This document shows, in pieces, positions 1-14,032 of a stretch of 14,032 nt of DNA. Source of the stretch: a virus; UHGV virus genome UHGV-0332040; one strand, written 5' to 3'. A model generated the notes under the pieces. It saw nothing but the letters and a program-made list of their open reading frames with translations, was not told the DNA's origin and made no database searches. Made by a program: the position numbers and the translations under genes. Position 1 is the first letter of the stretch; the number at the start of each line of letters is the position of its first letter.

Positions 1-1
1 A

Positions 2-415
2 TTAGTGCGCACTCATACGCGCCATGTTCAACACCTTCCGCACAGAGGTTTCAGACACGCCAACCTTACTTGCAATGTAACGATTCTTCTGGCCTTTTGC
101 AGAGCGCTCGATAATGTCAGCGCGTACTGCCTCAGTGATCACCTTGCGGGGTCTGGCTCGATTCTTCTCGTGCCGTTCACGTTCGCGCATCCGCTCGGCC
201 ATCTTCGGCGGCAGCACAGGGGAAAGCCCACGGCTAACGCCAGAGGTGCGGGTGTCGGACGTGGCAGCTCGGGCAACGATATAAACCACTTCGTCTGGAT
301 TGAAAACGTGCTGCACACGCTCAGGGTAAATGTGGTCGCATCTACCCAGCGGCAAGGCGAAATCCGGGCGCACGTCAGCGACACGCTCCACGGCATGGAA
401 ATTACAGGTACTCAT
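2..415 (-). CDS. HTH-domain DNA-binding protein, C-terminus runs off the window (partial)
   Basis: ORF with ATG at 415 and GAGG 8 nt upstream; no stop before the window edge. Translation contains an HTH-like stretch (IIERSAKGQKNRYIASKVGVSETSVRKVL). Function not assignable from sequence alone. Confidence 0.5.
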   Translation of the reverse strand: MSTCNFHAVERVADVRPDFALPLGRCDHIYPERVQHVFNPDEVVYIVARAATSDTRTSGVSRGLSPVLPPKMAERMRERERHEKNRARPRKVITEAVRADIIERSAKGQKNRYIASKVGVSETSVRKVLNMARMSAH

Positions 416-554
416 TAGGAACCTCGGTTAATTAAAAACAGGCTTTTAGATGCCGCGCAGAATGCAGCTTGCGGGGACTCATGCGCTTAGATTGGTGTGG
501 TAGTACCGGGTTGGAGCGCACTCAGTCTTGCAGGGCGCATTCCACCGTTGGGCG

Positions 555-1241
555 TTAGCGACCAGCACGTTTGCCAGCGGAGCGCTGCGCAACCAGAGCG
601 CGGTATTGAATGTCGTACTGGCGATGGCCGGGGCCATACCCTGATTGCTGCGCCCACTGCGAAAGCTGATCATACGCTGCAATAAACTCAGCATGAGACA
701 TACCAACAGGTTGCGAGGCAGGCTGGCCGTATGGGTTCCCCTGTGATGGGACATAACCAGTCGCAGTGCCTGCGGCCATACGCTCTTGCAGATAATGAAC
801 CGCCCGCTGCATCTGCGCAGGGTCGCCAGACATAACCATCCGTTCAAGGGTTGATTGCGTCCCGGCGTCGAGCGTGCCAGCGTACTGCAACATCGCGTCA
901 ACTGTACCCTGCCCTAGCTGGCTTTCGACAGACTGGTGAAACTGCCCCATCAGCCCATGAAGTTCAGGAGTCAACTCAACAGTAGTGCCATCCTGTAATT
1001 GCAGTGTGTCGCCCACTTGTGCAGCAACATCAATCTGCTGGTCTTGCTGGTTGGCAAAGTTACTTTCGCTCCAGCTTTGATTAATGTTCGCTGGCTGCGT
1101 TTTCAGGAAATCAGCATCAGGTGTTGTCTGGTCGAATCGGCTAGCGCCGTTGTCAGCACCTACAGGTGCGGCCATGTACGGCGATTGCTGCGGCGCAGTA
1201 TCAGCGCCCGAAAGATATGGATTAACATTCTGGTCAGCCAT
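555..1241 (-). CDS. Hypothetical protein, Q/G/A-rich, 228 aa
   Basis: ATG at 1241 preceded by AGAGG SD inside the upstream gene; 2-nt gap to the upstream stop. Low-complexity Gln-rich composition; no recognisable catalytic motif. Confidence 0.55.
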   Translation of the reverse strand: MADQNVNPYLSGADTAPQQSPYMAAPVGADNGASRFDQTTPDADFLKTQPANINQSWSESNFANQQDQQIDVAAQVGDTLQLQDGTTVELTPELHGLMGQFHQSVESQLGQGTVDAMLQYAGTLDAGTQSTLERMVMSGDPAQMQRAVHYLQERMAAGTATGYVPSQGNPYGQPASQPVGMSHAEFIAAYDQLSQWAQQSGYGPGHRQYDIQYRALVAQRSAGKRAGR

Positions 1242-1243
1242 GA

Positions 1244-1483
1244 TTATGCAACCTCTTGTGATGTAACTCGGCGATGTGCCAGTTCAAGTAAAAGCATGTG
1301 TGCGTGTACGCAGCGTGGGGGAATCATCTTCTGACCGTGGTACGCCTTGCAGAGATCTTGTCTGTCAATTTGATACACACGAGCCAGATCGATTTGGCGT
1401 AGATTCAAGGCATCAGCAATGAATTTCAGTTGTTGCCCGCACTCCACCGCGCGGCGCGGCTCCATTAAAATGATGGTGCTCAT
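1244..1483 (-). CDS. Hypothetical small protein (79 aa; start revised to internal ATG)
   Basis: The track ORF 1244..1525 overlaps the upstream gene. The internal ATG at 1483 (MSTIIL...) has a GAGGA SD about 8 nt upstream and sits just after the upstream stop at 1498. Confidence 0.5.
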   Translation of the reverse strand: MSTIILMEPRRAVECGQQLKFIADALNLRQIDLARVYQIDRQDLCKAYHGQKMIPPRCVHAHMLLLELAHRRVTSQEVA

Positions 1484-1497
1484 GAAATAATCCTCAG

Positions 1498-1731
1498 TTA
1501 GATAAGGCCATGACGACGCAACCAACGTCGCTCGCCAACGGAGCCACGCGGTCGCTGCCTTGGGTTCTGGTTTGGTGCTTGGCCGGGATCAGTTCGTCCT
1601 TCCCCGGACAGGTTCTGTGTCAGCACATCCCAGCCGCGTGATTCAAACGGGGCGTATCCCTCGCGCTGTTCGTCAAGGTTCACATAGAGATCAGGGTTAA
1701 CGGCAGGGTGCAGCGGTTCGTTCTCTGCCAT
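1498..1731 (-). CDS. Hypothetical protein, 77 aa
   Basis: ATG at 1731 shares one base with the TGA stop of the upstream gene (TGATG), suggesting translational coupling. The GTG at 1734 reported by the ORF track is less likely. Confidence 0.5.
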   Translation of the reverse strand: MAENEPLHPAVNPDLYVNLDEQREGYAPFESRGWDVLTQNLSGEGRTDPGQAPNQNPRQRPRGSVGERRWLRRHGLI

Positions 1732-2291
1732 CACTTAGCCCCGAATCGCGTGTTAACATCTTCCAAAATATCGGGGTAGCTCCAGCGGTTACGCATCAGG
1801 CGCAGGACATGAGCAACAGCCTCAACAGAGATCCCAAGCTCTCCAGCGATCTCGGTTTGTTTCCAGCCGAAGCGCTCCAGCTTGTGCATCTGATCGAGGT
1901 CGGCGCTCAACAGGCGGCGCATCGTCTGAGGTTTCTCAGGCTTCGCTTTAACAGCTTTCGGCATCGGGTGGGTGTGGGCGTTGCTAAAGCGGGAATGTGC
2001 GATAGCCAGCACAGTCTCAGGGCGAATCAGCATATCGCGGGCAATCATAAACTCTGTATCGCGGTGCAGCTTGCCGGGCTTATAGCGGCTGCGGATGGCG
2101 TTGTACTCCGCCAGAGTGATATCAGCATCGTCTTTCCAATTTTCGGCCAAGTCATCGACATAGACGCCACGGATTACAGCATCAATATCGGTCAGGGTAT
2201 GACCTGTCTCCGCTGCAATCTCTTCATTGTTCTTTAGGTGCTTATGAGCCAGCGTGTTAATGCGCTGGATATCGGTAATGCTCAAAGTCAT
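1731..2291 (-). CDS. HTH protein with C-terminal sigma-70 region-4-like motif (regulator or DNA-binding packaging/replication accessory)
   Basis: 186-aa ORF; C-terminal WKQTEIAGELGISVEAVAHVLRLMRNRW resembles region-4/LuxR-type HTH. The start overlaps the upstream stop (ATGA). Confidence 0.6.
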   Translation of the reverse strand: MTLSITDIQRINTLAHKHLKNNEEIAAETGHTLTDIDAVIRGVYVDDLAENWKDDADITLAEYNAIRSRYKPGKLHRDTEFMIARDMLIRPETVLAIAHSRFSNAHTHPMPKAVKAKPEKPQTMRRLLSADLDQMHKLERFGWKQTEIAGELGISVEAVAHVLRLMRNRWSYPDILEDVNTRFGAK

Positions 2292-2464
2292 ACATTAAAC
2301 TCCGAATCAAAATTGATCTGGTCAGTAACCAGCGAATGAATCAGCGCAAGGCTGGATGCGGTATGTGTGCCCGACTTGCGGGCGTTGTCGTACATGAAGC
2401 GGGCTACACGTTGATATTTCTCCGGCAGCGTGGCGAACCATTGCCGGAACTGTTCGGGGGTCAT
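2288..2464 (-). CDS. Small hypothetical protein, 58 aa (not in supplied ORF track)
   Basis: Hand translation of the minus strand from ATG at 2464: MTPEQFRQWFATLPEKYQRVARFMYDNARKSGTHTASSLALIHSLVTDQINFDSEFNV. It fills the otherwise empty gap 2292-2460 and has ATGA overlaps with both neighbours. Confidence 0.4.
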   Translation of the reverse strand: MTPEQFRQWFATLPEKYQRVARFMYDNARKSGTHTASSLALIHSLVTDQINFDSEFNV

Positions 2465-2670
2465 TGGTCGTCATCCTCCGGGAACACGTTGTTAAAGGTT
2501 GTATCAGGCGAGTCGGCGGCGTTCTGCTTGAGGAAGTTCACGCAGGATGACAACTCGGCAGCAGCCATGCGTGACTCTCCCGCCTCGTCCTCCTTAAGCC
2601 TGCGCGTCAACGCACCCAGCAGCAGGGTTTTTAGTTCCCATGCTCCGGCTTCAAATTCAGATTTCGTCAT
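2461..2670 (-). CDS. Hypothetical small acidic protein, 69 aa
   Basis: ORF in an operon with ATGA overlaps at both ends (2667-2670 and 2461-2464). Confidence 0.5.
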   Translation of the reverse strand: MTKSEFEAGAWELKTLLLGALTRRLKEDEAGESRMAAAELSSCVNFLKQNAADSPDTTFNNVFPEDDDQ

Positions 2671-3098
2671 TGGTGGTTATCTCCAGTTAGTCCCATTGCA
2701 CGCAAGTGTTGAATGACCTCGGCATGTACTGGTTTTGGTAAAAACAGGCGACGCTGCACGGATTGAAGTATCTCGTCGCGCGTCTTGTCGGCAGGGTGAA
2801 CAGTCCCATTAAAGACCTCACGAGCCATGCGATAGGTCGGCCAAAGGCGAGCGCCATCCTCCCTGCGACGGAATCTATTCAGCACAGCGGCCAGACACTC
2901 CCACGGCTCACAGTTATTGAGCAGGCAATACCGCTGTAGCGGTGTCGTTGCCCGGCGCATGATGGCTTCACGATTAAGGGTCTGAATATGACGTTCGGCC
3001 AGTCCGTCGAATGAATAGCCGTTCAAAGCAAAGGCGAGCTGCGCATTAAGCAGGGCGTCAGAACGCCCCGCACGATGCAGTGCGGTTTCATCAGGCAT
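2667..3098 (-). CDS. Hypothetical protein, 143 aa
   Basis: ORF on the same strand about 43 nt downstream of the helicase stop; ATGA overlap with the next gene. No recognisable motif. Confidence 0.55.
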   Translation of the reverse strand: MPDETALHRAGRSDALLNAQLAFALNGYSFDGLAERHIQTLNREAIMRRATTPLQRYCLLNNCEPWECLAAVLNRFRRREDGARLWPTYRMAREVFNGTVHPADKTRDEILQSVQRRLFLPKPVHAEVIQHLRAMGLTGDNHQ

Positions 3099-3141
3099 AA
3101 GGATTCTCCAGAAAGGAATTTAAACAGGCGAGCTGGTCAGC

Positions 3142-5031
3142 TCAGAGGAAGCGGGAGATGTAACCCCAATTGCAGTTTTCAGGGCGGTACAACGCTGCCA
3201 GCTCATCAGGTACACCGGACGGCACCGGGGCAGAGTCGGCGTCATAGGTGATGGGGTCGCCATACAGAGCCAACGATGACCACAGCAGAAAAGCACGGGC
3301 AGGTTGACCGTCACGCCCGGCACGTCCGATCATCTGAACTAAATCGGGCAGGTCTTCGGGAACATAAGTGACAATTACGTTACGCACGCCAGAGATATCA
3401 GCCCCCAGCCCGAAGGCTTTAGTAGCAATCAGAACCGCGCCGGGCGTGCTGGCAAACCACGCAGCGTTAGCGTGACGCTGGTCGCGGCTCAGTCGCTCAA
3501 CGTCAGAATGGTAAGGCCGGGCGCGGTCTCCCAGTTCGTTGAGATACGCATACAGCATCTTGATACTGTCCACCATCACCAGCGTCTTCTCATCCAGCGG
3601 GAGGGCATCGACCAGACCAACGGCAGCCCGGCGCGTAGTTGCGCACTGCTGAACAGGAATAAGCTGGATGTTTTCACGGGCAGCACTGGCGCGGTAGGTG
3701 AGGAACTCGCCACGACAGCCAAGCTCTTTCATCAAGCCAGACTCATCACCTTTTCGCAGGGTCGCAGTAAACGCGCACCGCTGAGCATCCGGGAAGGCAT
3801 TTTTCAGGGTGTGTTTCATTGCAGGGAAAGCGTCCCGGAACTCCCATTCATCAACGGTATGAACCTCGTCAATGATAAATCTGTCCACACCAGCGGCCAT
3901 CAGCGCAGCCAGCACCTGATTGCCCGGCACCAGATGCTCAGGTGAAACTACGGCAACGTGGAAAGCGCCAGCAGCCAACCCCGCAAGCTGTTGCGCATTG
4001 CGTCGCCTCGGCAGCTTGTCGCCAAAGGCAACAGCGTGAACGCCAGTTTCTAGCAACTGCTGTAACACCTGCTGCTTGATGGTGTTTGTAGGCACAACAA
4101 TAACGGTCAGACCGTCATCAGAATCAGATTCAAATTGCAGGGCATAGGTGAATGCAGCCGTCTTTCCGTACCCGGTTGGCAGTACGGCCAATACATCGCG
4201 GTCACGGGCAAATACGGCGGCAGCTACGTCCTGCTGGCCGGGTCTCCAGTCTCTGCCATCTAGCGGTGGTAACGGTACGAATGCCGGGCGGTCGCATTGC
4301 TCCAGCTCGCGGAACCTGTACGGCGCGGTAACCAGCGGCGGGATGGACGGCGGCAGGCCAGCACCCCCAACGTCACAATGCAGATTCAGCGTATTGAATT
4401 TATCATCCGTGGGTTTCAGCTCACCGCACCACAACTGACGGAAAGCCGGGCAGTCACCCAGTCGCGTAAAGTCAGCATGGCGCATAGCTTCCAGCTTGCT
4501 CATGCCGCGACTGATACGACGCACGATCTTCTCATCGCAAATCAGAAACTCACGGCAGGCTTTGAGGAAGGCATTCTGCCCGGTTGTCGCTTCCGGGATG
4601 GAGTGCTCGCGCGGTTTAAGCGCAGCGTCATCAACGCGAACGCCGGGGAAATCTGGCGGCAGCGGCTCGGCGTACCGGGCAGGCTTTTTGTTTAGCCACA
4701 TCTCCAGCTCAGCGCGGCGGCAGTGGATTGCATCGCCCGGCTGGATAATCTGGCGCAACCCGGCATCAGCGCGGCGGGAATGTCGCTTGCGGCCAATTCC
4801 ATTCGCCTCTTTCCATTCACGGAACGACATAACTGAACCATCTGCATTGTAGAAATACTGCCCGGAAACGGTGTTAAGCGCTGCCTTCACTGGTCGCTGT
4901 TTAACAGGGCATAACTTGGAATGAGGTATAACGATCTTATCCGCAACCAGTTGCTGAGCATCCGCAGGCTCGGTGTTCAGCGGTTCGGCGTCAGCGGCCA
5001 GCGTAAGCAAGCGGTTTAAATTGGTTGGCAT
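3142..5031 (-). CDS. RecQ-like superfamily-2 DNA helicase with an N-terminal domain of about 260 aa of unknown function
   Basis: 629-aa ORF. Helicase motifs read directly from the translation: motif I LPTGYGKT, motif Ia-like IVVPTNTIKQQV, motif II IIDEVHTVDEWEFRDAF (DExH with the RecQ-type W..FR signature), motif III FTAT, motif VI QMIGRAGRDG. GGAG SD upstream of ATG 5031. Confidence 0.85.
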   Translation of the reverse strand: MPTNLNRLLTLAADAEPLNTEPADAQQLVADKIVIPHSKLCPVKQRPVKAALNTVSGQYFYNADGSVMSFREWKEANGIGRKRHSRRADAGLRQIIQPGDAIHCRRAELEMWLNKKPARYAEPLPPDFPGVRVDDAALKPREHSIPEATTGQNAFLKACREFLICDEKIVRRISRGMSKLEAMRHADFTRLGDCPAFRQLWCGELKPTDDKFNTLNLHCDVGGAGLPPSIPPLVTAPYRFRELEQCDRPAFVPLPPLDGRDWRPGQQDVAAAVFARDRDVLAVLPTGYGKTAAFTYALQFESDSDDGLTVIVVPTNTIKQQVLQQLLETGVHAVAFGDKLPRRRNAQQLAGLAAGAFHVAVVSPEHLVPGNQVLAALMAAGVDRFIIDEVHTVDEWEFRDAFPAMKHTLKNAFPDAQRCAFTATLRKGDESGLMKELGCRGEFLTYRASAARENIQLIPVQQCATTRRAAVGLVDALPLDEKTLVMVDSIKMLYAYLNELGDRARPYHSDVERLSRDQRHANAAWFASTPGAVLIATKAFGLGADISGVRNVIVTYVPEDLPDLVQMIGRAGRDGQPARAFLLWSSLALYGDPITYDADSAPVPSGVPDELAALYRPENCNWGYISRFL

Positions 5032-5052
5032 GGTGCAAACTCCAGAGAAGGA

Positions 5053-5490
5053 TTAAATACTACGCGCCCAAGCTAAATCTTCGGGTGTCCGACTTTCGAT
5101 TAACGCTAACTGCCAGCGTAAGTAATCCTCATGTTCTTTGGTGTATCGGGGAATACCTATAGGATTTTTCACAGCGTCCGGGTTAGTCCTCGCGACTTCC
5201 CTGCAATCTCGGTCGAAAGCCCAGCGGGCAACTTCCACCGATTCGTAATCCGTAAATCGGTACGGCCTTGTGCGGGAACGTACACGCCAGACAACTTGCC
5301 CTAATTCGTGGATGTATATGCCGCAAAGTTCATCCGGGCTTGGGTGATACAATGGCTCCCCATAATTCTGGCGCATGAACTTCACAAACTTTTGATTGCG
5401 GCGGGCACGCCGTGCTTTTTCGCGTCGCTCCTCGGCTTCATACTCTTTTTGAATGGCGGCACGGTCTACCGGGATAAGTGTTTTGCTCAT
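5053..5490 (-). CDS. Hypothetical protein, 145 aa (first gene of the operon; start revised)
   Basis: The track ORF 5053..5667 has no SD at its first ATG. The internal ATG at 5490 (MSKTLIPV...) has GGAGA 7 nt upstream. Arg/Lys-rich N-terminal region. Confidence 0.55.
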   Translation of the reverse strand: MSKTLIPVDRAAIQKEYEAEERREKARRARRNQKFVKFMRQNYGEPLYHPSPDELCGIYIHELGQVVWRVRSRTRPYRFTDYESVEVARWAFDRDCREVARTNPDAVKNPIGIPRYTKEHEDYLRWQLALIESRTPEDLAWARSI

Positions 5491-5557
5491 ACAGTGATCT
5501 CCAGAAATTAATGTGAGTTTGGAACGGGGCGCAGGACGGAAGCGCCGGGAGTGTGGC

Positions 5558-5756
5558 AGTCTGTCCTCCTTAGTAGTTACCATCATTGCAATGGCGTCGG
5601 AGTTCTGTCTCTCTTTAGTAGTGATCTTCATCCAGTAATTTGGATTAAATGCAGACACGGCGGGCATTGCAGCGAGATGGAGAGTAGGCGGGCTTGCGGT
5701 TTCAGTCTGCCTTAGTACAAGTTTCTAGTGGTCGGTAGCCTTTCCCTTATTAGTAG
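5558..5756. repeat. Iteron/operator-like direct repeats with TTAGTA(G/C) core in the operon leader
   Basis: Plus-strand copies: AGTCTGTCCTCCTTAGTAG (5558-5576), GTTCTGTCTCTCTTTAGTAG (5602-5621), AGTCTGCCTTAGTAC (5704-5718), plus a core-only TTAGTAG at 5750-5756. All lie upstream of the operon start at 5490. Confidence 0.5.
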
Positions 5757-6024
5757 CTCTCATTTATCCGGGGCTTGTCTTCCCACACAGTAGCCGTCTT
5801 CTAAAGCAACCACACCACAATCCACTACTGGCAAGGAGTTAGCAGACACGGTGATGTAGGCTACTCAAGTGTGGATTTGTAGGCGTTTTATAGTATCTGT
5901 CCTTCTTATTAGACACCTTTAAATTTCATTAATAAATACAGTTAGTTAAACGGTTATCTTTATTACTTATAAATTTCACAGATCAATAAATTAAAATTGA
6001 TCGGAATTATCAGCTTTAATTTTC

Positions 6025-6053
6025 TTGACAGCTATTTGTATAATGGTTTTAAG
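6025..6053 (+). promoter_or_regulatory. Sigma-70 promoter-like hexamers in an AT-rich island (TTGACA 6025-6030; perfect TATAAT 6039-6044)
   Basis: Both consensus hexamers are present but only 8 bp apart, so they cannot belong to one promoter. TTGACA could pair with TTTAAG (6048-6053, 17-bp spacer), or TATAAT with a weak -35 upstream. No plus-strand ORF follows. Confidence 0.25.
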
Positions 6054-6222
6054 AAGTTGTATCGGAGTGAGCGACTGGCAGTGAGCGTAGCGAACGATAA
6101 GCCAGTCGGCGAAGAACGAAGAGTATGAGATGACTTGTCATCGAATACGATGAGTGATTGAGCGGTACGAACGGAGATACGCTGTATAACAGTTAGAACA
6201 GTTAACAAGCTGATTAATGCTT

Positions 6223-6387
6223 TCAATGATTATCTGAATCAGTGTTATCAATTCCGAAATAACTCTTCCTCTCCTGTATTGATTCAATCATTTCTTTCAT
6301 TTCAAGAATCACTACCAGCTCAGCTAATAACCGTCTCAGTTCAACATTTGAATCATTAGCACGACACTTATTTTCTGAGTATTCCAT
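6223..6387 (-). CDS. Small hypothetical protein, 54 aa, in AT-rich island (not in supplied ORF track)
   Basis: ATG at 6387 with GGGAG SD 8 nt upstream; translation MEYSENKCRANDSNVELRRLLAELVVILEMKEMIESIQERKSYFGIDNTDSDNH; AT-rich codons unlike the neighbouring genes. Confidence 0.3.
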   Translation of the reverse strand: MEYSENKCRANDSNVELRRLLAELVVILEMKEMIESIQERKSYFGIDNTDSDNH

Positions 6388-6479
6388 ACGGTCAACTCCC
6401 TACGGTATAAGTCCATTCCAATCCGTTCACAGATTACATTGCTGAATGATCATCAGACAAGTGGCAGTCATCATCACCA

Positions 6480-6800
6480 AGTTAGAGTCGTCTCGCTACA
6501 TATCCCCGCCGGATTGCCAGCGCGGCTAACACGGTTGTGAGGAGCGCCGAGCATCACAGCGGACGCAGGCCGATGAACGAGCCGTAGGTGAGTGAAAGCG
6601 GACTCGCGGACGCGAGAAGCGCAGCAGCAGGCGGCGACTGATAAACGAGCCAGACAGGTGAGTGCAAGCAGGCGTAAGCACTGCACCGTTGAGAGGTGTG
6701 GAGACGGCGGAACGTCTCCGCGTTAGGGAGGTGGATTTGGGGAGGATGTGCAAGGCACACCTCGCTCCACCCACGGGGTGTCGGTGGGTAGGGGTATAAC
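6480..6800 (+). other. T-depleted, purine-rich non-coding block with tandem repeats and GC hairpins (candidate ncRNA or protein-binding array)
   Basis: Stops in all plus frames; the minus frames are open only because that strand is A-poor. Hand count: 9 T in 6541-6660. Tandem repeat pair 6572-6599 and 6640-6669; palindrome CTCGCG-GA-CGCGAG 6603-6616; hairpins at 6700-6719 and 6769-6789. Confidence 0.35.
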
Positions 6801-6910
6801 GCTAATTGGTTAAGTGTACACATGTACGCTGAAATCATTAAAAGCCTATAGAAACAGCATGTAACCCAGCACCACGACATAACCAATTATCGTTGAACCC
6901 CCTCCCCGGC

Positions 6911-7246
6911 CCCACCCGGAATTTTTCAGTGATGAATCACTTCACAATCTGATCTCGATGTTCATCGTCTGGCACGGCTAAAGCCCCGCCATCTCTTCAC
7001 ATCGAGAGCCGCAAGTAATACGAAAATACATTATAAATCATAGCATTACGACATCGCGCATAACATAACGCTCTGAAATTAATACGAAAGCTGTAGGTCA
7101 TCCATCACCCACAGCCCAGTAACGGCCAGTGCTGGCACCTCATTTGGCTGTAGGTCAGCCCGACCCCACCGCCCAATAACCCCACCCGGCAGCAATGGCA
7201 CGGCACCAGACGCAGCGTAACGATCTCTGAGTTGATAAATCACTTA
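6911..7246. repeat. Cluster of paired short repeats in the C+A-rich non-coding block 3' of the serine recombinase gene
   Basis: CCCACCCGG at 6911-6919 and 7181-7189; TAATACGAAA at 7016-7025 and 7080-7089; GCTGTAGGTCA at 7090-7100 and 7147-7157; palindrome-containing TGATGAATCACTT at 6930-6942 and TGATAAATCACTT at 7234-7246. Confidence 0.45.
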
Positions 7247-7329
7247 GGGCAGCGTAACCCACACCCAACGGCTCACATCCTCGCAGAGAGGCTCACAGAT
7301 CACCTCGTGACATTTCACAGCATCAACCC

Positions 7330-7953
7330 TCAGACGCTGGCAGCCAGCTCACGCTTAATGCGGTAGAACGTTGCCCGGCTTATCCCGGCAGCTTTCATGA
7401 TGCGCTCCGGTTTCACACCCTGCGCCAGCATTTCCCTGACGGTCTCGCGAGCGGCGGCATCCTTCTGACTCCCACGATAAAGCCCCTCAGCTTTGGCTCG
7501 TTCAATGCCCTGCCGCTGGCGCATCAGTCGCGTCTCGTAGTCCACGCGGGCCATTGTAGCGAGGATATCGATCAGCATTGCGTTAACGGCTCTGAGGATG
7601 CCGCTGGTTAGCTCTGACGCGGTTTCGTTCAGCAACTGCCACGAGGTTGGCAGGTCAACGGCGACGATCACCAGCCCCTTATCCTGAATCCTCTGTTTCA
7701 GTGTCGCCCATTCCTTTTGTGTCAGGCGGCTTAGCCTGTCTATGCTTTCGACAAGTAGAACGTCGCCAGCCTCCGCCTCACCCAGCAGGCGCATCAGTTC
7801 AGGACGCTCCAGCCGCGCACCGCTGGCGTTCTCGATGTATCGCGCAGCAATAGACCAACCACGCTCATTAGCGAAATCCTCCAGCGCAGGAACGGCACGG
7901 TCGGCGTGTTGCTCGGCGGTGGATGCCCTGGCATACAGACGAACGTTATTCAT
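7330..7953 (-). CDS. Small serine recombinase (resolvase/invertase family)
   Basis: 207-aa ORF with GGAGGG SD. N-terminal catalytic motif YARASTAEQ (Ser11), LLVESIDRLSRL, and a C-terminal HTH (ISRATFYRIKRELA), typical of resolvase/Hin-Gin-type enzymes. Confidence 0.85.
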   Translation of the reverse strand: MNNVRLYARASTAEQHADRAVPALEDFANERGWSIAARYIENASGARLERPELMRLLGEAEAGDVLLVESIDRLSRLTQKEWATLKQRIQDKGLVIVAVDLPTSWQLLNETASELTSGILRAVNAMLIDILATMARVDYETRLMRQRQGIERAKAEGLYRGSQKDAAARETVREMLAQGVKPERIMKAAGISRATFYRIKRELAASV

Positions 7954-8536
7954 GATTCACCCTCCAAATCTCAGTGAAGTATCACATCCCGACATGAAGG
8001 AGATCACACTTAAAAACCGTGGTCAATAGGGTATAAAATAAATTTGATTGCGACAGCTTAGGCACATCACAATGCGGTATACCCGGATGAGACAGAGACA
8101 GCCAGCGGCAGACTGGCACCGAGTCACAGCAAAACCCCGGCGCACCCAGCGAACGCAGCGCAAAGCGCACACAGGAGATCAGCACGGCACCGCCACGATC
8201 TCGAAATCACAAAGGCGTTGAATCAAACATTGCAACCGCAGCAGTAACCAGCCAGCATTTCGCGCCTGCAACGGTTGTCTCGGATGAGCAAAATCTTAGG
8301 GTTTTCTCAGCGACCCCTGACGCGCGGGCACGCACATGCGCACGGGGGCGCGGGCGAGCTATACAGTTGAGGGAGGGGCAACCATAAGCGTGCAATTTTT
8401 CAAGCCGGGACTTTTAACAGTGGGATTGTGAGGCTATTTTGCATTCAGAGAGTGAGGCTGTAGGGTAGCTCCCCTTGAACCAGATAACGCTAAGCTAACC
8501 ATTTTCCCCACTGCTTAAGCCACTTTGCGTTGACGT

Positions 8537-9037
8537 TCAGCACCCCACAGCAGCATTATCCGGCATCAGAAACGGAATCAGTTTAGTATCACCATGCACA
8601 TATAACGGGTGCATAGGCTCTCCCGTTGCGTTAATTTTAAAACACTTCGTATCTACAGGAAGGAACGCCCGTACTACGGCAGAGCGTTTCAGGTGCCGCC
8701 CTTCATTCCCCCACGCAGCAACAACGATACCAGCACCAGCTATCAATTCTGCCAGATACTTATCATTATCCGCCCCGACAGGCTCCGGGAATCTCATCAT
8801 CTCAAAGCGGTCAGTACACACATACGCGAACAGGTTCGCGATACGTACCCCCCCGAAGCCCCAGCTCTGCGCAAATGAGATACAACGTTTCAGTGTGGGG
8901 TCGTCAAGCTCTGCGTCCGCATACGATGGATTCAAACCGATGAAAAGAGCATAAGGCTTTGCAGCGTCCCACGTTCTGGAAATAGCGTAACGGTACTTCC
9001 CGCACACAGAGAAGATCGCGTCTTTGTTCACATCCAT
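8537..9037 (-). CDS. DUF1643-like protein, 166 aa
   Basis: Translation carries the motif block I recall as characteristic of DUF1643 (CGKYRY...FIGLNPSYADAELDDPTLKRCISFAQSWGFGG). Assignment is from memory of the family signature, not from a search. GAGGG SD upstream of ATG 9037. Confidence 0.55.
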   Translation of the reverse strand: MDVNKDAIFSVCGKYRYAISRTWDAAKPYALFIGLNPSYADAELDDPTLKRCISFAQSWGFGGVRIANLFAYVCTDRFEMMRFPEPVGADNDKYLAELIAGAGIVVAAWGNEGRHLKRSAVVRAFLPVDTKCFKINATGEPMHPLYVHGDTKLIPFLMPDNAAVGC

Positions 9038-9039
9038 GA

Positions 9040-9180
9040 TTAACCCTCTTCACTACGTTTATCATCCCGCATCGAGTCAATGAAGTCGCGTTGCTCCTGC
9101 GTCAGTTCCAGATTTTCTAACAACTTGTCTAATTCTATTTCGGCGGATTCTTGCTTCTGCAAACGCTCTTTGTCAGCCAT
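9040..9180 (-). CDS. Small acidic hypothetical protein, 46 aa, translationally coupled to the DUF1643 gene (not in supplied ORF track)
   Basis: ATG at 9180; translation MADKERLQKQESAEIELDKLLENLELTQEQRDFIDSMRDDKRSEEG; its TAA stop lies 2 nt upstream of the DUF1643 ATG, with that gene's SD inside its 3' end. Confidence 0.35.
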   Translation of the reverse strand: MADKERLQKQESAEIELDKLLENLELTQEQRDFIDSMRDDKRSEEG

Positions 9181-9671
9181 GCCAAGCCCCACAAGATTAG
9201 GATTAATCTTAGGCTACAAAATGATCAATACAAATGCAACGGATTGTTATTTATTACAGATACAAGAATTAAGGGGGAAATAATCAGGAGGGGATGCCCC
9301 GGACTGCCAGCACAGAACCGGGGCGAATGCGGACGGAGCCACCCATCAGCCGAATAACCATAGCCTATTTTCTGGCAATAGCAAGCCATAAGCGCCGTGT
9401 TGGGTACACTCAGCAGCAGCGCCATCGGCGCATCATCATCTCAATCTTGTACAATCATCCGTTCACTTATCGAGTACCGTTCATTTATGGCACGGTGAAC
9501 ACCACGGCAGAGCCAGCCCCTTTCCCGGACTGGTTAGGCTTCCCAACATCAGCTCGTTTATCCGTGGCGTGTCATCACGACAGGCGGGAACCGGACACCG
9601 CGCTAAGTGCGGAACAGATGAATGTTTCAGGGAATCATGCCGGGTGAACGGCTTTCAGTTCATGTTGGACT

Positions 9672-9920
9672 ATCGCGGTATGACCAGTGGAACGACCGCC
9701 AGCGCTTTGCTAAACTCCCTGTTCACCGTTCAACAAATCGCGGCAACTATCAGGGTAAATAGCGGTACTTTGGTCACATCACCTTAGAGCTAACTCATTG
9801 AGTTATAAGGCTTTTAATGGGCTGGAGCGGGCGAAGGGAATCGAACCCTCATAGCTAACCCATTGAATTGTGAACCAAAATAAGTAATCGCGGTACTTAT
9901 CCCGGTAGTTGGTAGCGGTA
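9672..9920. repeat. Candidate integrase arm-type repeats (ATCGCGGTA / GCGGTACTT family) on both sides of the att core
   Basis: ATCGCGGTA 9672-9680; ATCGCGGCA 9737-9745; GCGGTACTT 9762-9770; ATCGCGGTACTT 9887-9898; GCGGTA 9915-9920. Three copies lie left of the core and two lie between the core and the int start. Confidence 0.4.
9823..9850 (-). other. att core: 28-nt 3' end of a tRNA-Gly gene (T-arm, acceptor 3' strand, U discriminator, CCA); not a complete tRNA
   Basis: Minus strand reads GAGGGTTCGATTCCCTTCGCCCGCTCCA, which matches my recollection of the 3' end of enterobacterial tRNA-Gly(CCC) glyU. No D-arm or anticodon arm is recognisable 5' of it, so it is a fragment. Confidence 0.65.
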
Positions 9921-9938
9921 GATTACAAGGTAATTACC

Positions 9939-11165
9939 ATGCCAATCAAGAAGACTTCTTATCTTTATGCAAACAAAGATGGGATATTCATCTTTCAAAT
10001 CTTTATCCCGGTGTACATGCGCCACTTATGGCACGGGCGGCGCTCACTCAAGAAATCGACAGGCACGCGGGACATCATGCAAGCTCGCATATTCCGTGAC
10101 CAATACTTATTAGAGTTCCGAAAGCTCCAGCTCATGATGAAACCGGATAACCCTATAAACCGGATTCATTCTGCTATTTCAGATCTTCACTTACTGGCGG
10201 GAATATCCAGCGACATTACCGCGCCCGTAACTACTCCAGCAGAACGAGGGAAACCAGCGTCGCCAAAATTGACAGATGTCAGTAAAGAATATGCAGAGCA
10301 ATACAAAGATCGGCGCTCTTATTCCACATTGAGTAAATCCGCTCGCGCTGTATCAGCATTCACTAAATCAACTAAGCGCCCAACAATTACAATAAACGGA
10401 ATCGGGCGGCGGCTCGTCTCTGACTTTCTGAAAGCGAACCAAGATAAGTTTTCCCGGCAGACGATGCAAAACTGGTTAACTTGCTTAGGTACGCTGTACG
10501 ACTTCGCCCGGCGTAAATATGACAATATCGCCCCTGATAATCCCTTTCACGGCCACAATCTGGAAGCCCGTCAGACAAACGAAAGTTACCAGCCGTTTGA
10601 ACCGCACCAGCTACAGACATTAACAAAAAAGGCAGGTGACGAAATAAGGGATGTAATAATAATCGGGCTGTATTCCGGGATGCGTCTTGATGAAATAGCC
10701 AGCATTAAACGGGATGAGGTTGTCACCATCGACGGCGTGCGGTGTTTCTATGTCAGTAAATCAAAAACAAAGGCGGGTATAAGGCATGTCCCTGTACACT
10801 CGCTGTTATTTGACATTGTTGATAAATACCTCGCGCAAAACAGCGGGGAGTACCTGCTCCCCCAATCCAACAAAATTAAACGCGCGGATGGTAAACGTGG
10901 GCCGTGGTATTCTCAGACATTTACCCGCTTACGTCGCCGGGTACTACCAACAGCCACAGAGCGCCAGTGTTTCCACTCCCTGCGTGGTCACTTCATCACC
11001 TGCTTAGACCGGGCAGGTGTACCAGAACAGCGCATAGGAGCTATTACCGGGCATACAGAGAAAAAGGCAAAGACGGAAGCATTTAAAACGTACAGCCAAG
11101 GGGCTGGGATGAAAGAACTATCTGAATACGTAGAGCTGGTAAGTTATCCAGAACTTGAATCATAA
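9939..11165 (+). CDS. int: Tyrosine recombinase / phage integrase
   Basis: 408 aa from ATG 9939 (AAGG SD 9 nt upstream); the track start at 9909 is a TTG. C-terminal catalytic region has GMRLDE (Arg), HSLRGHFIT (H-x-x-R...H) and a C-terminal Tyr in FKTYSQG. Lies 89 nt from the tRNA-derived core. Confidence 0.85.
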   Translation: MPIKKTSYLYANKDGIFIFQIFIPVYMRHLWHGRRSLKKSTGTRDIMQARIFRDQYLLEFRKLQLMMKPDNPINRIHSAISDLHLLAGISSDITAPVTTPAERGKPASPKLTDVSKEYAEQYKDRRSYSTLSKSARAVSAFTKSTKRPTITINGIGRRLVSDFLKANQDKFSRQTMQNWLTCLGTLYDFARRKYDNIAPDNPFHGHNLEARQTNESYQPFEPHQLQTLTKKAGDEIRDVIIIGLYSGMRLDEIASIKRDEVVTIDGVRCFYVSKSKTKAGIRHVPVHSLLFDIVDKYLAQNSGEYLLPQSNKIKRADGKRGPWYSQTFTRLRRRVLPTATERQCFHSLRGHFITCLDRAGVPEQRIGAITGHTEKKAKTEAFKTYSQGAGMKELSEYVELVSYPELES

Positions 11166-11167
11166 TT

Positions 11168-11596
11168 TCAGGCAGGGTAAATAATCCCCAGCCCGCGATA
11201 CTGGCGGCGGTATTCTCTGACCAGAGCATCCGCCGTCGCCCTCGGCAGCTTCGCCATATGCCCGGTACGATAGCCACCCTCGGCAGAATTCGCTGCACGA
11301 TGTACAACAGCCCGCACGCGCCCGGTTCTGTGGTCGTGGTCGAGGGTCGTGCTGCTGAACGCAACAGCCCGCCCGGTAACGGCACACCGTCGATACTGAT
11401 AATTCCACAGAAAGCAACGCACCGCAGCCACGTCAGCACGGCGCAACTCCAGTCGCCCTGAACCATTCAACAGGAGGCGATACACATCGTCGAATGCAGC
11501 AGCGTTTCTAACGCGCTCAGCCAGCGGCATATTGCCAAGGAACTCCAGATAATCCCGCATTGCTTTTCTTAAAAGTTGGTCTGTCCGTGTAACCAT
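11168..11596 (-). CDS. Endonuclease VII-like (recombination endonuclease VII family, HNH-type) protein
   Basis: 142-aa ORF with GGAGA SD; motif CAVTGR...LDHDHRTGRVRAVVHRAAN resembles the DHDH-x-TG-x-VRG core of T4 EndoVII-family proteins. Confidence 0.55.
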   Translation of the reverse strand: MVTRTDQLLRKAMRDYLEFLGNMPLAERVRNAAAFDDVYRLLLNGSGRLELRRADVAAVRCFLWNYQYRRCAVTGRAVAFSSTTLDHDHRTGRVRAVVHRAANSAEGGYRTGHMAKLPRATADALVREYRRQYRGLGIIYPA

Positions 11597-11868
11597 GATT
11601 CAAAGTCTCCATTGTCAGACACAGCCCGCTTGCAGGCTTCGTATTCTTCGCGCTGGCGTTGGCATACCAGAGCATAAAGCTCATCAGCCACCGCATTTAC
11701 GCGCCTATCACTGATACCGTTGCGACGCATCTGCCCCAGCAGCTTACGAAATTCAGCCTCAAGCTCAGGCTCTCCTGTATCCATTACCCACTGTTTCAAG
11801 TCAGCGAGTGCGCCAGTCATTGGCGGCGGCTCGATGTACCGCCACCTTAATTTAATCGTCAAAGCCAT
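11569..11868 (-). CDS. Hypothetical protein, 99 aa (start revised to second ATG)
   Basis: AGAGGA SD directly abuts the first ATG at 11874, so the second ATG at 11868, 6 nt further, is the likelier start. Overlaps both neighbours on the same strand. Confidence 0.5.
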   Translation of the reverse strand: MALTIKLRWRYIEPPPMTGALADLKQWVMDTGEPELEAEFRKLLGQMRRNGISDRRVNAVADELYALVCQRQREEYEACKRAVSDNGDFESWLHGQTNF

Positions 11869-12277
11869 AAGCATTCCTCTTTATATCGTTTGCTCTCGCT
11901 TCACTGGCTTGTTTAAGCGTCATTCCTTCGATAGCTATATCCAGCAGTTCCTTTTGCTTACCAGCCAATCGCAAGGCGCTGTCTCTCCAGCAAAGCAGAA
12001 AGAAGATTGTCAGCACCTGTTTACTCAATCCATCCAGAAGATCGCCAAGTCCTTGATCCAGCAGACAGGCACGCCATGCAGCAGCGTGCTGCGTCATAGC
12101 ACCGACTATCGGGATAGGTGCGCCAAGCATCGTCGCAAGCTGACTCATAACACTATTAGCATCGCCCGGATGCAGCCGGGGAATAGTCATGCGGCCAGCC
12201 TGCGCCAACAGCTCGGCGTACCTCTGGCGACGTGGGTCATCACATGCCAGCGGTTTAATTGGCTTTTCATCAGCCAT
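11852..12277 (-). CDS. Hypothetical protein, 141 aa
   Basis: ATG at 12277 with GGAGG SD 9 nt upstream, immediately after the TAA of the HNH gene. Confidence 0.55.
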   Translation of the reverse strand: MADEKPIKPLACDDPRRQRYAELLAQAGRMTIPRLHPGDANSVMSQLATMLGAPIPIVGAMTQHAAAWRACLLDQGLGDLLDGLSKQVLTIFFLLCWRDSALRLAGKQKELLDIAIEGMTLKQASEARANDIKRNAYGFDD

Positions 12278-12295
12278 ATATGGAACCTCCGAGGA

Positions 12296-12823
12296 TTAGG
12301 CAGCCTGCAACAAATCGGCTGGCGTTGAGGGATGGTATCTGGCTTTAGCTTTTAGATAGGCAGCACGCGCCGCCGCTTCGGTTGTGAACAAGCCAAGGTG
12401 ATGGCGTACACCATTAACGCGAATGTAAGCCTCCCATTTACCAGAACAAGAATGACGGCTATATCCCTTCGCTTTGCGGTAGTTGTGCTGATTCTCCTGC
12501 GGTGTAACAGCGCGGAGGTTGCCCGGTCGATTATCGGCACGTACAGCGTTAATGTGGTCGATTTGCAGACCGTCAGGGATACCACCATTAGCAATGATGA
12601 AGGCCACGCGATGCGCATAAATCGAGTGCGTCCTGCCGTCGATGCGGACAGACACGCGCCGATACCCGGCGCTGTCCGTTGCGGTGTCAGCCAGTTCCCC
12701 GGCCTCAGCATAAATCCGCTTGTTGATTCCAATTCGGTCTACTGCATGGAACAGGCGGCCAGTCTCCGCATCGTATCGAAATAAAGAGCGTAGCAGCTCA
12801 GGGGCGTAAGCATCATTAACCAT
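12296..12823 (-). CDS. HNH homing-type endonuclease with AP2-like DNA-binding domain
   Basis: 175-aa ORF with GGAGGGG SD. HNH_3-type block GYRRVSVRIDGRTHSIYAHRVAFIIANGGIPDGLQIDHINAVRADNRPGNLRAVTPQENQHN, and an AP2-like C-terminal block SGKWEAYIRVNGVRHHLGLFTTEAAARAAYLKAKARYH. Confidence 0.8.
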   Translation of the reverse strand: MVNDAYAPELLRSLFRYDAETGRLFHAVDRIGINKRIYAEAGELADTATDSAGYRRVSVRIDGRTHSIYAHRVAFIIANGGIPDGLQIDHINAVRADNRPGNLRAVTPQENQHNYRKAKGYSRHSCSGKWEAYIRVNGVRHHLGLFTTEAAARAAYLKAKARYHPSTPADLLQAA

Positions 12824-12839
12824 GACTCAGCCCCTCCAG

Positions 12840-13835
12840 TTACACAGCTTGTCGGAAATTGATAACGCAGTCAGGGCGGCGCAGTCCAACATTGAACAGG
12901 CGATATGAGTCCATCACCATCGTCATTTCGCGCTCATCATCCCACTGGCGATTGATAACGCTCTGCGCTTCGACTGTCACAAGTACAGACGCAGGCCGGA
13001 ACAGCGTCGCCCGCGTCAGCGCTTCCTCTGAGGTAACGTCATAATCAGCGCCCAGTTCATGCCCGGTAATAGCTTCCTGCGGGTAACTGTTCAGCTCAAT
13101 GACTCGTACCCCAGCGACATAGCCAACTCGACGCCATGCGTAATCGTTGCCACTATCCCGGCTGTAACGGACGTTCATCAGCTTCTTATGTTCCATCAGG
13201 ATGCTGAACCAAGCCGGGTCGATAAGCAGTACCAGCTCGGCCACCGGAATATCTTTCTCAGTGAGAAAGCGATTAGCAGCCGCTTTTACGACGTGAGCCA
13301 ATTCGTTTGCGGCGTCCTCTTCGCTCCCCGCTGTCAGGTCGAGCGATACAACGTTATCCGTTAGTGGGTTAAACGTTGGTTGCAGTGTCGGCGGCGGTAC
13401 AAAGTCAGTCGCTTTGATTAGCTGGATGGTGTGCGCTTCGTCGTAGAATTTAGCGTGAGCAGTACCCATATTGCGGCTCAGCTCTGCGCGAAAGGTGGGC
13501 GCTGTCCAGTCGTCCTGATAGTCAATCGGAATGCGGATATAGCTCAGCGTATCCACAGAGATAATCAGCTTATCCGACTTAACAGCGGTAGGCTCCAGCG
13601 ATTGCCCTGCGGTTCTGCCCTTCACCTCCAGATCACCACTCAGGCGATCAATGCGGTATTGGTTGCTGGCTTTCAGCGGCCTGTATGTAGACAGCCCCTC
13701 TGCCAGAAATACGGATTTGGACTCTAAACGGGTCTGGACATCCCGGTCATAAGCCTCGATGTGAATATCATTGTCGGATTCCACCCCGCCATAATGTGGG
13801 CGAAACAGATCGGGACTGTACGAAGTATCAGTCAT
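12840..13835 (-). CDS. Major capsid protein, T7 gp10-like (HK97-fold family); start revised
   Basis: 331 aa from ATG 13835 (AGGAG SD 8 nt upstream). Several blocks align by eye with my recollection of T7 gp10A: KLIISVDTLSYIRIPIDYQD vs KVITIDGLLTADVLIYDIED, LLIDPAWFSIL vs FYCDPDSYSAIL, C-terminal YRLFNVGLRRPDCVINF vs YAMGHGGLRPEAAGAVVF. Not search-verified. Confidence 0.55.
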   Translation of the reverse strand: MTDTSYSPDLFRPHYGGVESDNDIHIEAYDRDVQTRLESKSVFLAEGLSTYRPLKASNQYRIDRLSGDLEVKGRTAGQSLEPTAVKSDKLIISVDTLSYIRIPIDYQDDWTAPTFRAELSRNMGTAHAKFYDEAHTIQLIKATDFVPPPTLQPTFNPLTDNVVSLDLTAGSEEDAANELAHVVKAAANRFLTEKDIPVAELVLLIDPAWFSILMEHKKLMNVRYSRDSGNDYAWRRVGYVAGVRVIELNSYPQEAITGHELGADYDVTSEEALTRATLFRPASVLVTVEAQSVINRQWDDEREMTMVMDSYRLFNVGLRRPDCVINFRQAV

Positions 13836-14032
13836 AAACAAAACTCCTACGTAGGTTGATGAAGCCCGCGCCATCGTCATGGCACAGACGTGCGGAATCC
13901 TCCCGCCGAGGCAGGATTCAGAACGGTATCGATTAAAGGGATGAGGTGCCCCGAAATGGGCGTTTTGAGGCCAGAGCTGGCGCGGTTCTCAGAGGTTAGT
14001 GCGCGTGAAGTAAGGCGAACGTATTACCTTGC

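Follow-up and report, generated by a model that had tools for sequence, protein, structure and literature searches.

A probable intact attP for the glyU tRNA gene next to a tyrosine integrase gene in a 14-kb integrative element

Lambda-type attachment sites are used by a heterobivalent tyrosine integrase: the attP on which phage lambda Int acts contains the sites P1, P2 and P'1-3, together with the sites H1, H2 and H' for the integration host factor (IHF). Islands and satellites also carry integrases that act at the 3' end of a tRNA gene, such as P4 Int at leuX and the Int of the Yersinia high-pathogenicity island (HPI) at an asn tRNA gene. The DNA analysed here is UHGV virus genome UHGV-0332040, a stretch of 14,032 nucleotides (nt) that is called the window over its whole length. 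Its segment ~9625-9938 is very probably an intact attP for the tRNA-Gly gene glyU, and it is followed by the integrase gene int (9939-11165). It is considered likely that this segment is the complete, unrecombined attP of an integrative element of ~14 kb, working in the lambda style and with int in the same cassette. The original prediction had already read 9672-9938 as an intact attP and not as a prophage junction.

As in lambda, the adjacent gene encodes a tyrosine recombinase, a motif is repeated in both arms and the core is that of an attB for which both recombination products are observed. In contrast to lambda, the core is the 3' end of a tRNA gene and not the gal-bio attB. Int has no detectable similarity to lambda Int outside the Pfam catalytic domain, and transcription of int leads away from attP, the P' sites lying upstream of the gene. 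In its way of working, the site is comparable to those of the tRNA-targeting island integrases of P4 and HPI. It is an attP of an ordinary, well-understood sort; the first reading of this DNA is supported, and the knowledge of site-specific recombination is left unchanged.

The core of the site is the 3' end of glyU. On the plus strand, 9823-9850 reads TGGAGCGGGCGAAGGGAATCGAACCCTC, and the reverse complement, GAGGGTTCGATTCCCTTCGCCCGCTCCA, is a tRNA 3' end. As had been predicted, it belongs to a tRNA-Gly: it is identical at 28 of 28 positions to the annotated minus-strand tRNA-Gly beside actS and xdhA in Escherichia coli 5735, whose anticodon is CCC, i.e., glyU, according to ARAGORN. The parts of the core are the following, with those inside it given in plus-strand coordinates.

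9823-9850, minus strand: attP core, the 3' 28 nt of glyU tRNA-Gly(CCC); attL and attR of integrated copies break at the core edges
9823-9825: CCA
9826: discriminator
9827-9833: acceptor strand
9834-9838: first half of the T stem
9839-9845: T loop; predicted overlap (strand-exchange) region, from the identity-block boundaries
9846-9850: second half of the T stem

ARAGORN predicts no tRNA in the whole window, and thus no intact tRNA-Gly across 9823-9900, as was expected for an attP. A second copy of the core is likewise absent from the window, even with 14-nt seeds.

Comparison with an integrated copy in E. coli 5735 (NZ_CP154887; L003) indicates that the site is closed. Window positions 9822-14032 correspond to 9787-13997 of this locus at 99.95% identity, and positions 1-8243 follow at 13998-22234, directly continuing the end of the window without a gap. 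Positions 9624-9845 are found at the far end of the integrated copy (24148-24369). Since the end and the start of the window are adjacent in E. coli 5735, the window is one complete, circularly permuted unit of 14,032 bp; and since the two ends of the integrated copy are the two sides of 9823-9850, P, core and P' are contiguous in the window. Both flanks of the core map within the integrated element, as the original prediction had proposed, whereas at a prophage or island junction one of them would be host DNA. Left of 9823, no host genes are found; the resolvase gene there is part of the integrated copy, and the DUF1643 gene belongs to the variable region of the element. The ARAGORN result agrees with the earlier claim that the 5' half of the tRNA is missing, and the circular permutation supports an origin of the window from an excised, circular or virion form, or from an element not inserted at this site.

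The identical P-core-P' junction is also present in a metagenome scaffold (ERZ28663180 scaffold_1525; 14,140 bp), from which the window probably derives and which is 100% identical to window positions 1-11503 and 13971-14032, junction included, and contains neither host DNA nor Ns. The last 53 nt at the scaffold end (L014 11566-11618, against window 11504-11556) are unmatched; they fall within the endonuclease VII-like gene, and strain variation or a chimera at the end of the contig may account for them. Among 5,426 complete E. coli genomes, the contiguous junction was not found in any. By megablast, neither the attP region nor the whole window matched any of 50,697 phage records, PLSDB plasmids gave just a mis-filed chromosome and a 239-nt match, and IMG/VR viral contigs gave no match in either an exact-pattern scan or an integrase scan; the element is therefore not a catalogued phage or plasmid. 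Logan contigs of 11-15 kb with related integrases were considered as further circles and rejected, as they start at the core, which is a branch point of the assembly graph. These contigs were used for P' arms only, their P-arm ends lying beyond the 10-kb flank limit.

Both products of recombination with glyU are found in host genomes. Six further assemblies carry an identical Int and an identical P' arm, and in each of them the left flank diverges exactly at 9822/9823, into four different sequences among the six (host DNA, or another island in L011). The same attL break occurs in Enterobacter bugandensis and in Rosenbergiella sp. YN46, giving eight assemblies in total. The attR product, in which P arm and core run into the rest of glyU and leave the tRNA-Gly intact, is present in E. 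coli LR536431 and in Rosenbergiella; the tRNA-Gly is annotated at attR in the former, and in the latter P arm and core are followed by glyU in full. All integrated copies have int at the end away from the intact tRNA, beside the displaced 3' fragment. The proposed search for attB in host genomes thus recovered glyU together with its attL and attR, and the target that had been predicted from the core is confirmed by annotated, integrated copies. The attP finding fixes the ends of the element, its target and orientation and the size of its recombination module, and it makes the window a whole element and not a fragment. In E. coli LR536431, an IS1A insertion (L004 4288-6210) removed attL and the first 48 integrase codons, and the element is locked in place beside an intact attR and glyU.

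The position of the crossover can be approached through the length of the identity with glyU. The identity block measures 28 nt in the window and 54 nt, reaching to the anticodon stem, in the relative C21-2; in elements of the E. coli 90-1 type and in an unrelated island, island A, it is just 23 nt long and stops precisely at 9845, where the T loop has its inner edge. The CCA end is the starting point of every block. If the strands are exchanged within the 7-nt T loop and a complete tRNA has to result, the block needs to reach at least to the T-loop edge; on this reasoning, the overlap is placed at 9839-9845. On these boundaries, strand exchange within this T-loop segment, with the two T-stem halves as core-type half-sites, is slightly favoured. 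A T-loop sublocation class of tRNA integration sites was reportedly distinguished by Williams in 2002. Like the sites of that class, the window has an identity block running from the T arm to CCA, with the tRNA regenerated; the minimal 23-nt version stops at the inner T-loop edge, while the 54-nt block of C21-2 extends to the anticodon stem. A variant core, TGGAGCGGGTGAAGGG, is present in two Logan contigs of a related element (L019 and L020), with a C-to-T change at core position 10, in the acceptor-stem part beside the P' arm. This change could be useful for crossover mapping if it is phage-derived, and could reflect a different glyU allele if it is host-derived.

The gene beside the P' arm encodes the enzyme that would act on this core.

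9939-11165, plus strand: int, 408-aa tyrosine integrase with an arm-binding-like N domain, a SAM-like core-binding domain and a catalytic domain

In an E. coli copy with 99.9% identity, the RefSeq coding sequence has the same start, ATG 9939, as the original prediction had used, and the N termini of homologues agree with it. Int matches PF00589 with 39.2 bits (cut-off 27.1), and the catalytic residues R249, K276, H346, R349, H372 and Y385 are invariant in seven relatives. The protein has a separate N-terminal arm-binding-like domain, with a weak match to DUF6538, that is modelled as a lambda/HPI-like arm-binding fold. The family, with DUF6538 and PF00589 in ~400 aa, comprises 939 homologues at E<=1e-5, and those listed come from Enterobacterales. 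A PDB sequence search with Int returned nothing below E=0.4, and no description of this Int family or of DUF6538 was found in the literature. Membership of the P4-like integrases was rejected: no Pfam match to DUF4102/PF13356 (Arm-DNA-bind_3) is obtained at E<=0.01, and int is distal to the intact tRNA, whereas int adjoins the tRNA in P4-type islands.

A motif of the ATCGCGGTA type is repeated in both arms, distinct from the core, as in a lambda-type attP. It has six plus-strand copies, three in each arm, and they are probably the arm-type sites of Int, judging from the comparisons given below. The P arm and the candidate sites are as follows.

9625-9822, plus strand: P arm of attP, left border at ~9620-9630
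9672-9680, plus strand: candidate arm-type site P-a, ATCGCGGTA, distal P arm; exact motif copy
9688-9704, plus strand: conserved box TGGAACGACCGCCAGCG between P-a and P-b, near-invariant in five aligned P arms
9737-9745, plus strand: candidate arm-type site P-b, ATCGCGGCA; one mismatch to the motif
9759-9767, plus strand: candidate arm-type site P-c, ATAGCGGTA and then CTT; one copy of repeat D3, identical to 9886-9898 at 12 of 13 positions
9887-9895, plus strand: candidate arm-type site P'1, ATCGCGGTA followed by CTT (to 9898); exact motif copy
9899-9907, plus strand: candidate arm-type site P'2, ATCCCGGTA; GTA invariant in 7/7 aligned P' arms
9913-9920, plus strand: candidate arm-type site P'3, TAGCGGTA; 18 nt upstream of the int ATG

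The arm repeats on both sides of the core had been noticed in the original prediction, and they are indeed present; the starts of two of them are corrected from 9762 to 9759 and from 9915 to 9913, and the copy at 9899-9907 is added to those listed before. With one mismatch or fewer allowed, 3.4 matches to the 9-mer are expected in the window and 11 are present, five of them clustered in 236 nt around the core. When 9660-9938 was tested de novo, the best 9-mer family has five copies on the same strand, while the maximum in 500 dinucleotide shuffles was four, reached once.

The motif is kept in elements of different content. The element of E. coli 90-1 has a different cargo, including its replication genes, and an Int with 71% identity; its P arm contains ATCGCGGTA twice and its P' arm contains CACGGTA and TAGCGGTAG, on the same strand as the P-arm copies. 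From these comparisons, the arm motif is seen to travel with int and not with the cargo. The layout of three P' sites at a fixed distance from the int ATG is positionally aligned in seven relatives. Two of the homologues, P0006 (Pantoea) and P0009 (Citrobacter), have the same P' type as 90-1, so that they are no independent sample.

The individual sites vary between relatives. P-a is kept in four of five glyU-type P arms; C21-2 reads ATCGCAGTA, and P-a is intact in a C21-2-like P arm of Pantoea. The position homologous to P-b is ATCGCGGTA in the 90-1 relative, and the one homologous to P-c is GTTGTACCT in C21-2. The positional homologue of P'1 is TTGTAC in three relatives with a diverged Int N-domain. 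P'2 has CGGTA in the window and in the 90-1 type, and CTGTAC or TCGTAC in the C21-2 type. At P'3, TAGCGGTAG is conserved in 90-1 and Pantoea, and the C21-2 type has TAGCGTG or TTGCGTG. The two Int subfamilies compare with the window as follows; identities are to the window Int, and the reading at P-c is known for C21-2 only.

90-1: 77% in the core-binding and catalytic domains, 68% in the N-domain (1-68); CGGTA-type at P'2, with P-c and P'1 diverged; P'3 TAGCGGTAG
C21-2, L017 and L021: 65-75% in the core-binding and catalytic domains, 48-50% in the N-domain (1-68); TTGTAC, CTGTAC or TCGTAC; P'3 TAGCGTG or TTGCGTG

TGTAC thus replaces CGGTA at P-c, P'1 and P'2 where the N-domain of Int is 48-50% identical; in their core-binding and catalytic region, these relatives resemble the window Int to nearly the same degree as 90-1 does. 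Because both subfamilies share the glyU core, the change of motif follows the N-domain and not the domains that recognize the core. The int/attP cassette (~9625-11165), with its CGGTA and TGTAC variants, could serve as a model for the evolution of arm specificity or as a tool for integration at glyU.

Besides the candidate arm-type sites, the P arm contains the conserved box TGGAACGACCGCCAGCG, to which a similar box, TGGAACTACACGCCGC, is found in the leuX-type P arm of a relative in E. coli N9 (L005). The box at 9688-9704 may be bound by an accessory factor shared across the element family. A second pair of repeats, D1, flanks the core and contains IHF-like matches.

9782-9804, plus strand: left copy of direct repeat D1, CCTTAGAGCTAACTCATTGAGTT; 19/23 identity with 9847-9869
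9791-9803, minus strand: IHF-like match in the left D1; one mismatch to WATCAANNNNTTR
9847-9869, plus strand: right copy of direct repeat D1, CCTCATAGCTAACCCATTGAATT; its first 4 nt are also the final 4 nt of the core
9856-9868, minus strand: IHF-like match in the right D1; one mismatch to WATCAANNNNTTR

The two IHF-like matches are placed much as H2 and H' are in lambda, and binding of IHF here is a possibility. The right D1 copy with its IHF-like match is degraded, and partly kept, in Rosenbergiella. The 90-1 relative (L007, ~17150 and ~3990) has a different direct repeat of 22-23 nt, CTCTAAGCACCGGAAA(A/C)ATAAA, in the same layout. The D1 repeat at the core edge, together with the conserved TGGAAC box, could be the mark of an undescribed accessory recombination factor.

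In the proposed mechanism, the N-terminal ~70 residues of a heterobivalent Int would bind the six (A/T)(C/A)GCGGTA-type arm sites, which have the same orientation and lie three per arm, while its C-terminal domains would bind the core. A lambda-style intasome would then form, probably aided by DNA-bending factors at sites flanking the core. Recombination of attP with glyU yields attL, consisting of the downstream flank of the host, the core and P' followed by int, and attR, consisting of the P arm, the core and the rest of glyU, with the tRNA rebuilt distal to int; both products are found in several Enterobacterales genomes. Depending on the step, this full lambda-type mechanism is regarded as anything from reasonably probable to likely. 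The P' sites lie 18-52 nt upstream of the start of int, so that binding of Int could feed back on its own expression. The integrase IntS of KplE1 is reportedly regulated in this manner at its attL, with arm-type sites in the integrase upstream region. The placement is the same here, which makes autoregulation of Int a suggestion; no promoter was located, as a sigma-70 and terminator scan of 9000-10100 gave no sigma-70-like plus-strand promoter and hexamers picked by hand were poor.

The closed junction could have arisen otherwise than from a free attP. Two copies of the same element, lying head-to-tail at glyU, would have an internal joint that assembles as an apparent circle. Tandem accretion is common at glyU (E. 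coli 5735, Rosenbergiella, Pantoea), and the hybrid joints formed there resemble attP on one side. However, every array seen joins different elements, a same-element joint occurs in 0 of the 5,426 complete E. coli genomes, and the window is exactly one unit without host DNA, the matching scaffold being host-free as well. Such a dimer is therefore held to be improbable, and even with it the site would still be an intact attP of functional type. It is less probable still that the junction is an artefact in which assembly joined attL to attR through their shared 28-nt core, although the matching scaffold apparently stems from a short-read metagenome whose assembly, with the 53 unmatched nt at its far end, was not flawless, and although Logan contigs of relatives break exactly at the core. 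Window and scaffold are 100% identical across the junction, without Ns, and a repeat of 28 nt is shorter than the k-mers usual in such assemblies, so that a contig crossing the core needs reads that contain both flanks.

The ATCGCGGTA-type repeats may also be explained in another way, as operators or promoter of int, as sites of an excisionase or regulator, or as iterons for replication or packaging. The P' copies do lie 18-52 nt upstream of the int ATG, and the distal P block and the non-repeat box 9688-9704 are conserved across both N-domain subfamilies. Against these readings, the copies are found on both sides of the core in one orientation and stay with int when the cargo, including the replication genes, changes; three of them change in step with the N-domain of Int, which is of an arm-binding-like kind. 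Excisionase sites, as in lambda, are usually confined to one arm. Taken together, a role of this sort for the repeats is rather unlikely.

The reading of the segment as an unrecombined, lambda-style attP has nevertheless several observations against it. The sequence would be the same for a free circle, a concatemer, virion DNA and a tandem dimer of the same element. IHF-like matches number 15 in the window against 9 expected, which is not clearly above chance, and the crossover position comes solely from the identity-block boundaries. Elements of the TGTAC subfamily likewise retain the distal P block with P-a, so that not every copy follows the N-domain, and another factor may make use of part of this block. 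The conservation of the P' arm could derive in part from the 5' untranslated region or the promoter of int.

For the unrecombined attP, the extent of the P arm is given by the borders of identity between relatives. In copies with the same Int (E. coli 5735, LR536431 and Rosenbergiella), identity of 94.6-96.5% resumes only from 9619-9630, and the DNA further left differs. The element in E. coli N9 (NZ_CM165877; L005 2363-17058) has near-same cargo at the leuX tRNA-Leu gene and an Int with 39% identity, and it gives no match to window 9000-9938; its layout is that of the glyU copies, with int distal to the intact tRNA. From these borders and the different att DNA of the leuX relative, int and the ~315 bp before it (~9625-9938) form an exchangeable cassette, which, with near-same cargo at leuX, is exchanged as a module. 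A length of ~315 bp is normal for a lambda-type attP.

In E. coli, glyU has ygeQ and the island ETT2 on one side and actS and xdhA on the other. This locus is an island hotspot in E. coli, with ETT2, a type III secretion island, adjacent to glyU (PMC2808357). In comparison with ETT2, which is a fixed island, the element in the window is small and apparently active, with both att partners documented. The array in E. coli 5735 (L003 5334-28874) starts with ygeQ, a 23-nt core, island A and the 28-nt core, and continues with an element of 14.6 kb, a 23-nt core, a second, identical island A and the intact glyU. Island A encodes a 544-aa integrase and a DUF4145 protein, and it has the conventional P4-type arrangement, unlike the element in the window. 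Mixed arrays, in which one glyU-type element abuts another, are also found in Rosenbergiella (L015) and Pantoea (L025).

Relatives of the element occur in 149 of the 5,426 E. coli genomes; no description of it was found in the literature. Its other genes are listed here.

2-415, minus strand: helix-turn-helix protein
555-1241, minus strand: scaffold-like protein
2461-2670, minus strand: weak T7 gp18-like packaging match
3142-5031, minus strand: RecQ-like helicase
7330-7953, minus strand: serine invertase/resolvase
8537-9037, minus strand: DUF1643
11168-11596, minus strand: endonuclease VII-like
12296-12823, minus strand: HNH endonuclease
12840-13835, minus strand: major head protein, 55-56% identical to capsids of ~42-kb Bonnellvirus-type Autographivirales podophages

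Large terminase, portal and tail genes are absent from the 14,032-bp element, which looks like a capsid-encoding satellite of T7-supergroup phages. The closed attP suggests that a small capsid-encoding element can leave the chromosome, a prerequisite for the satellite question. More tentatively, and with some doubt on our part, the attP might be where the two ends meet when a capsid-encoding Enterobacterales satellite of 13-14 kb, from an undescribed family, is excised, replicating or packaged. If true, this family would parasitise virulent helpers of the T7 supergroup, swap whole int/attP cassettes (glyU or leuX) and form tandem arrays at glyU.

The DNA to the left of the P arm differs between copies. 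Window 8243-9624, which adjoins the P arm on its inner side, is variable with respect to L003 22234-24148: it carries DUF1643 and small open reading frames (ORFs), where E. coli 5735 has other ORFs. It may be a hotspot for accessory or defence genes. No xis was identified in the element. An excisionase candidate, a 117-aa ORF at 9294-9647 that is a gene call in the metagenome record, was rejected on its odd composition and the absence of a Pfam or PHROG match; indels in relatives are not multiples of three, and the ORF looks spurious. A search of Rfam at E<=1 over 9000-10100 gave no match, so that a known structured RNA in the P arm is unsupported. The stretch 9376-9655, which looks non-coding, has 81-85% identity with the otherwise different C21-2 element and with the Klebsiella pneumoniae plasmid NZ_CP074582, where its homologue lies between a recombinase-family gene and sodB.

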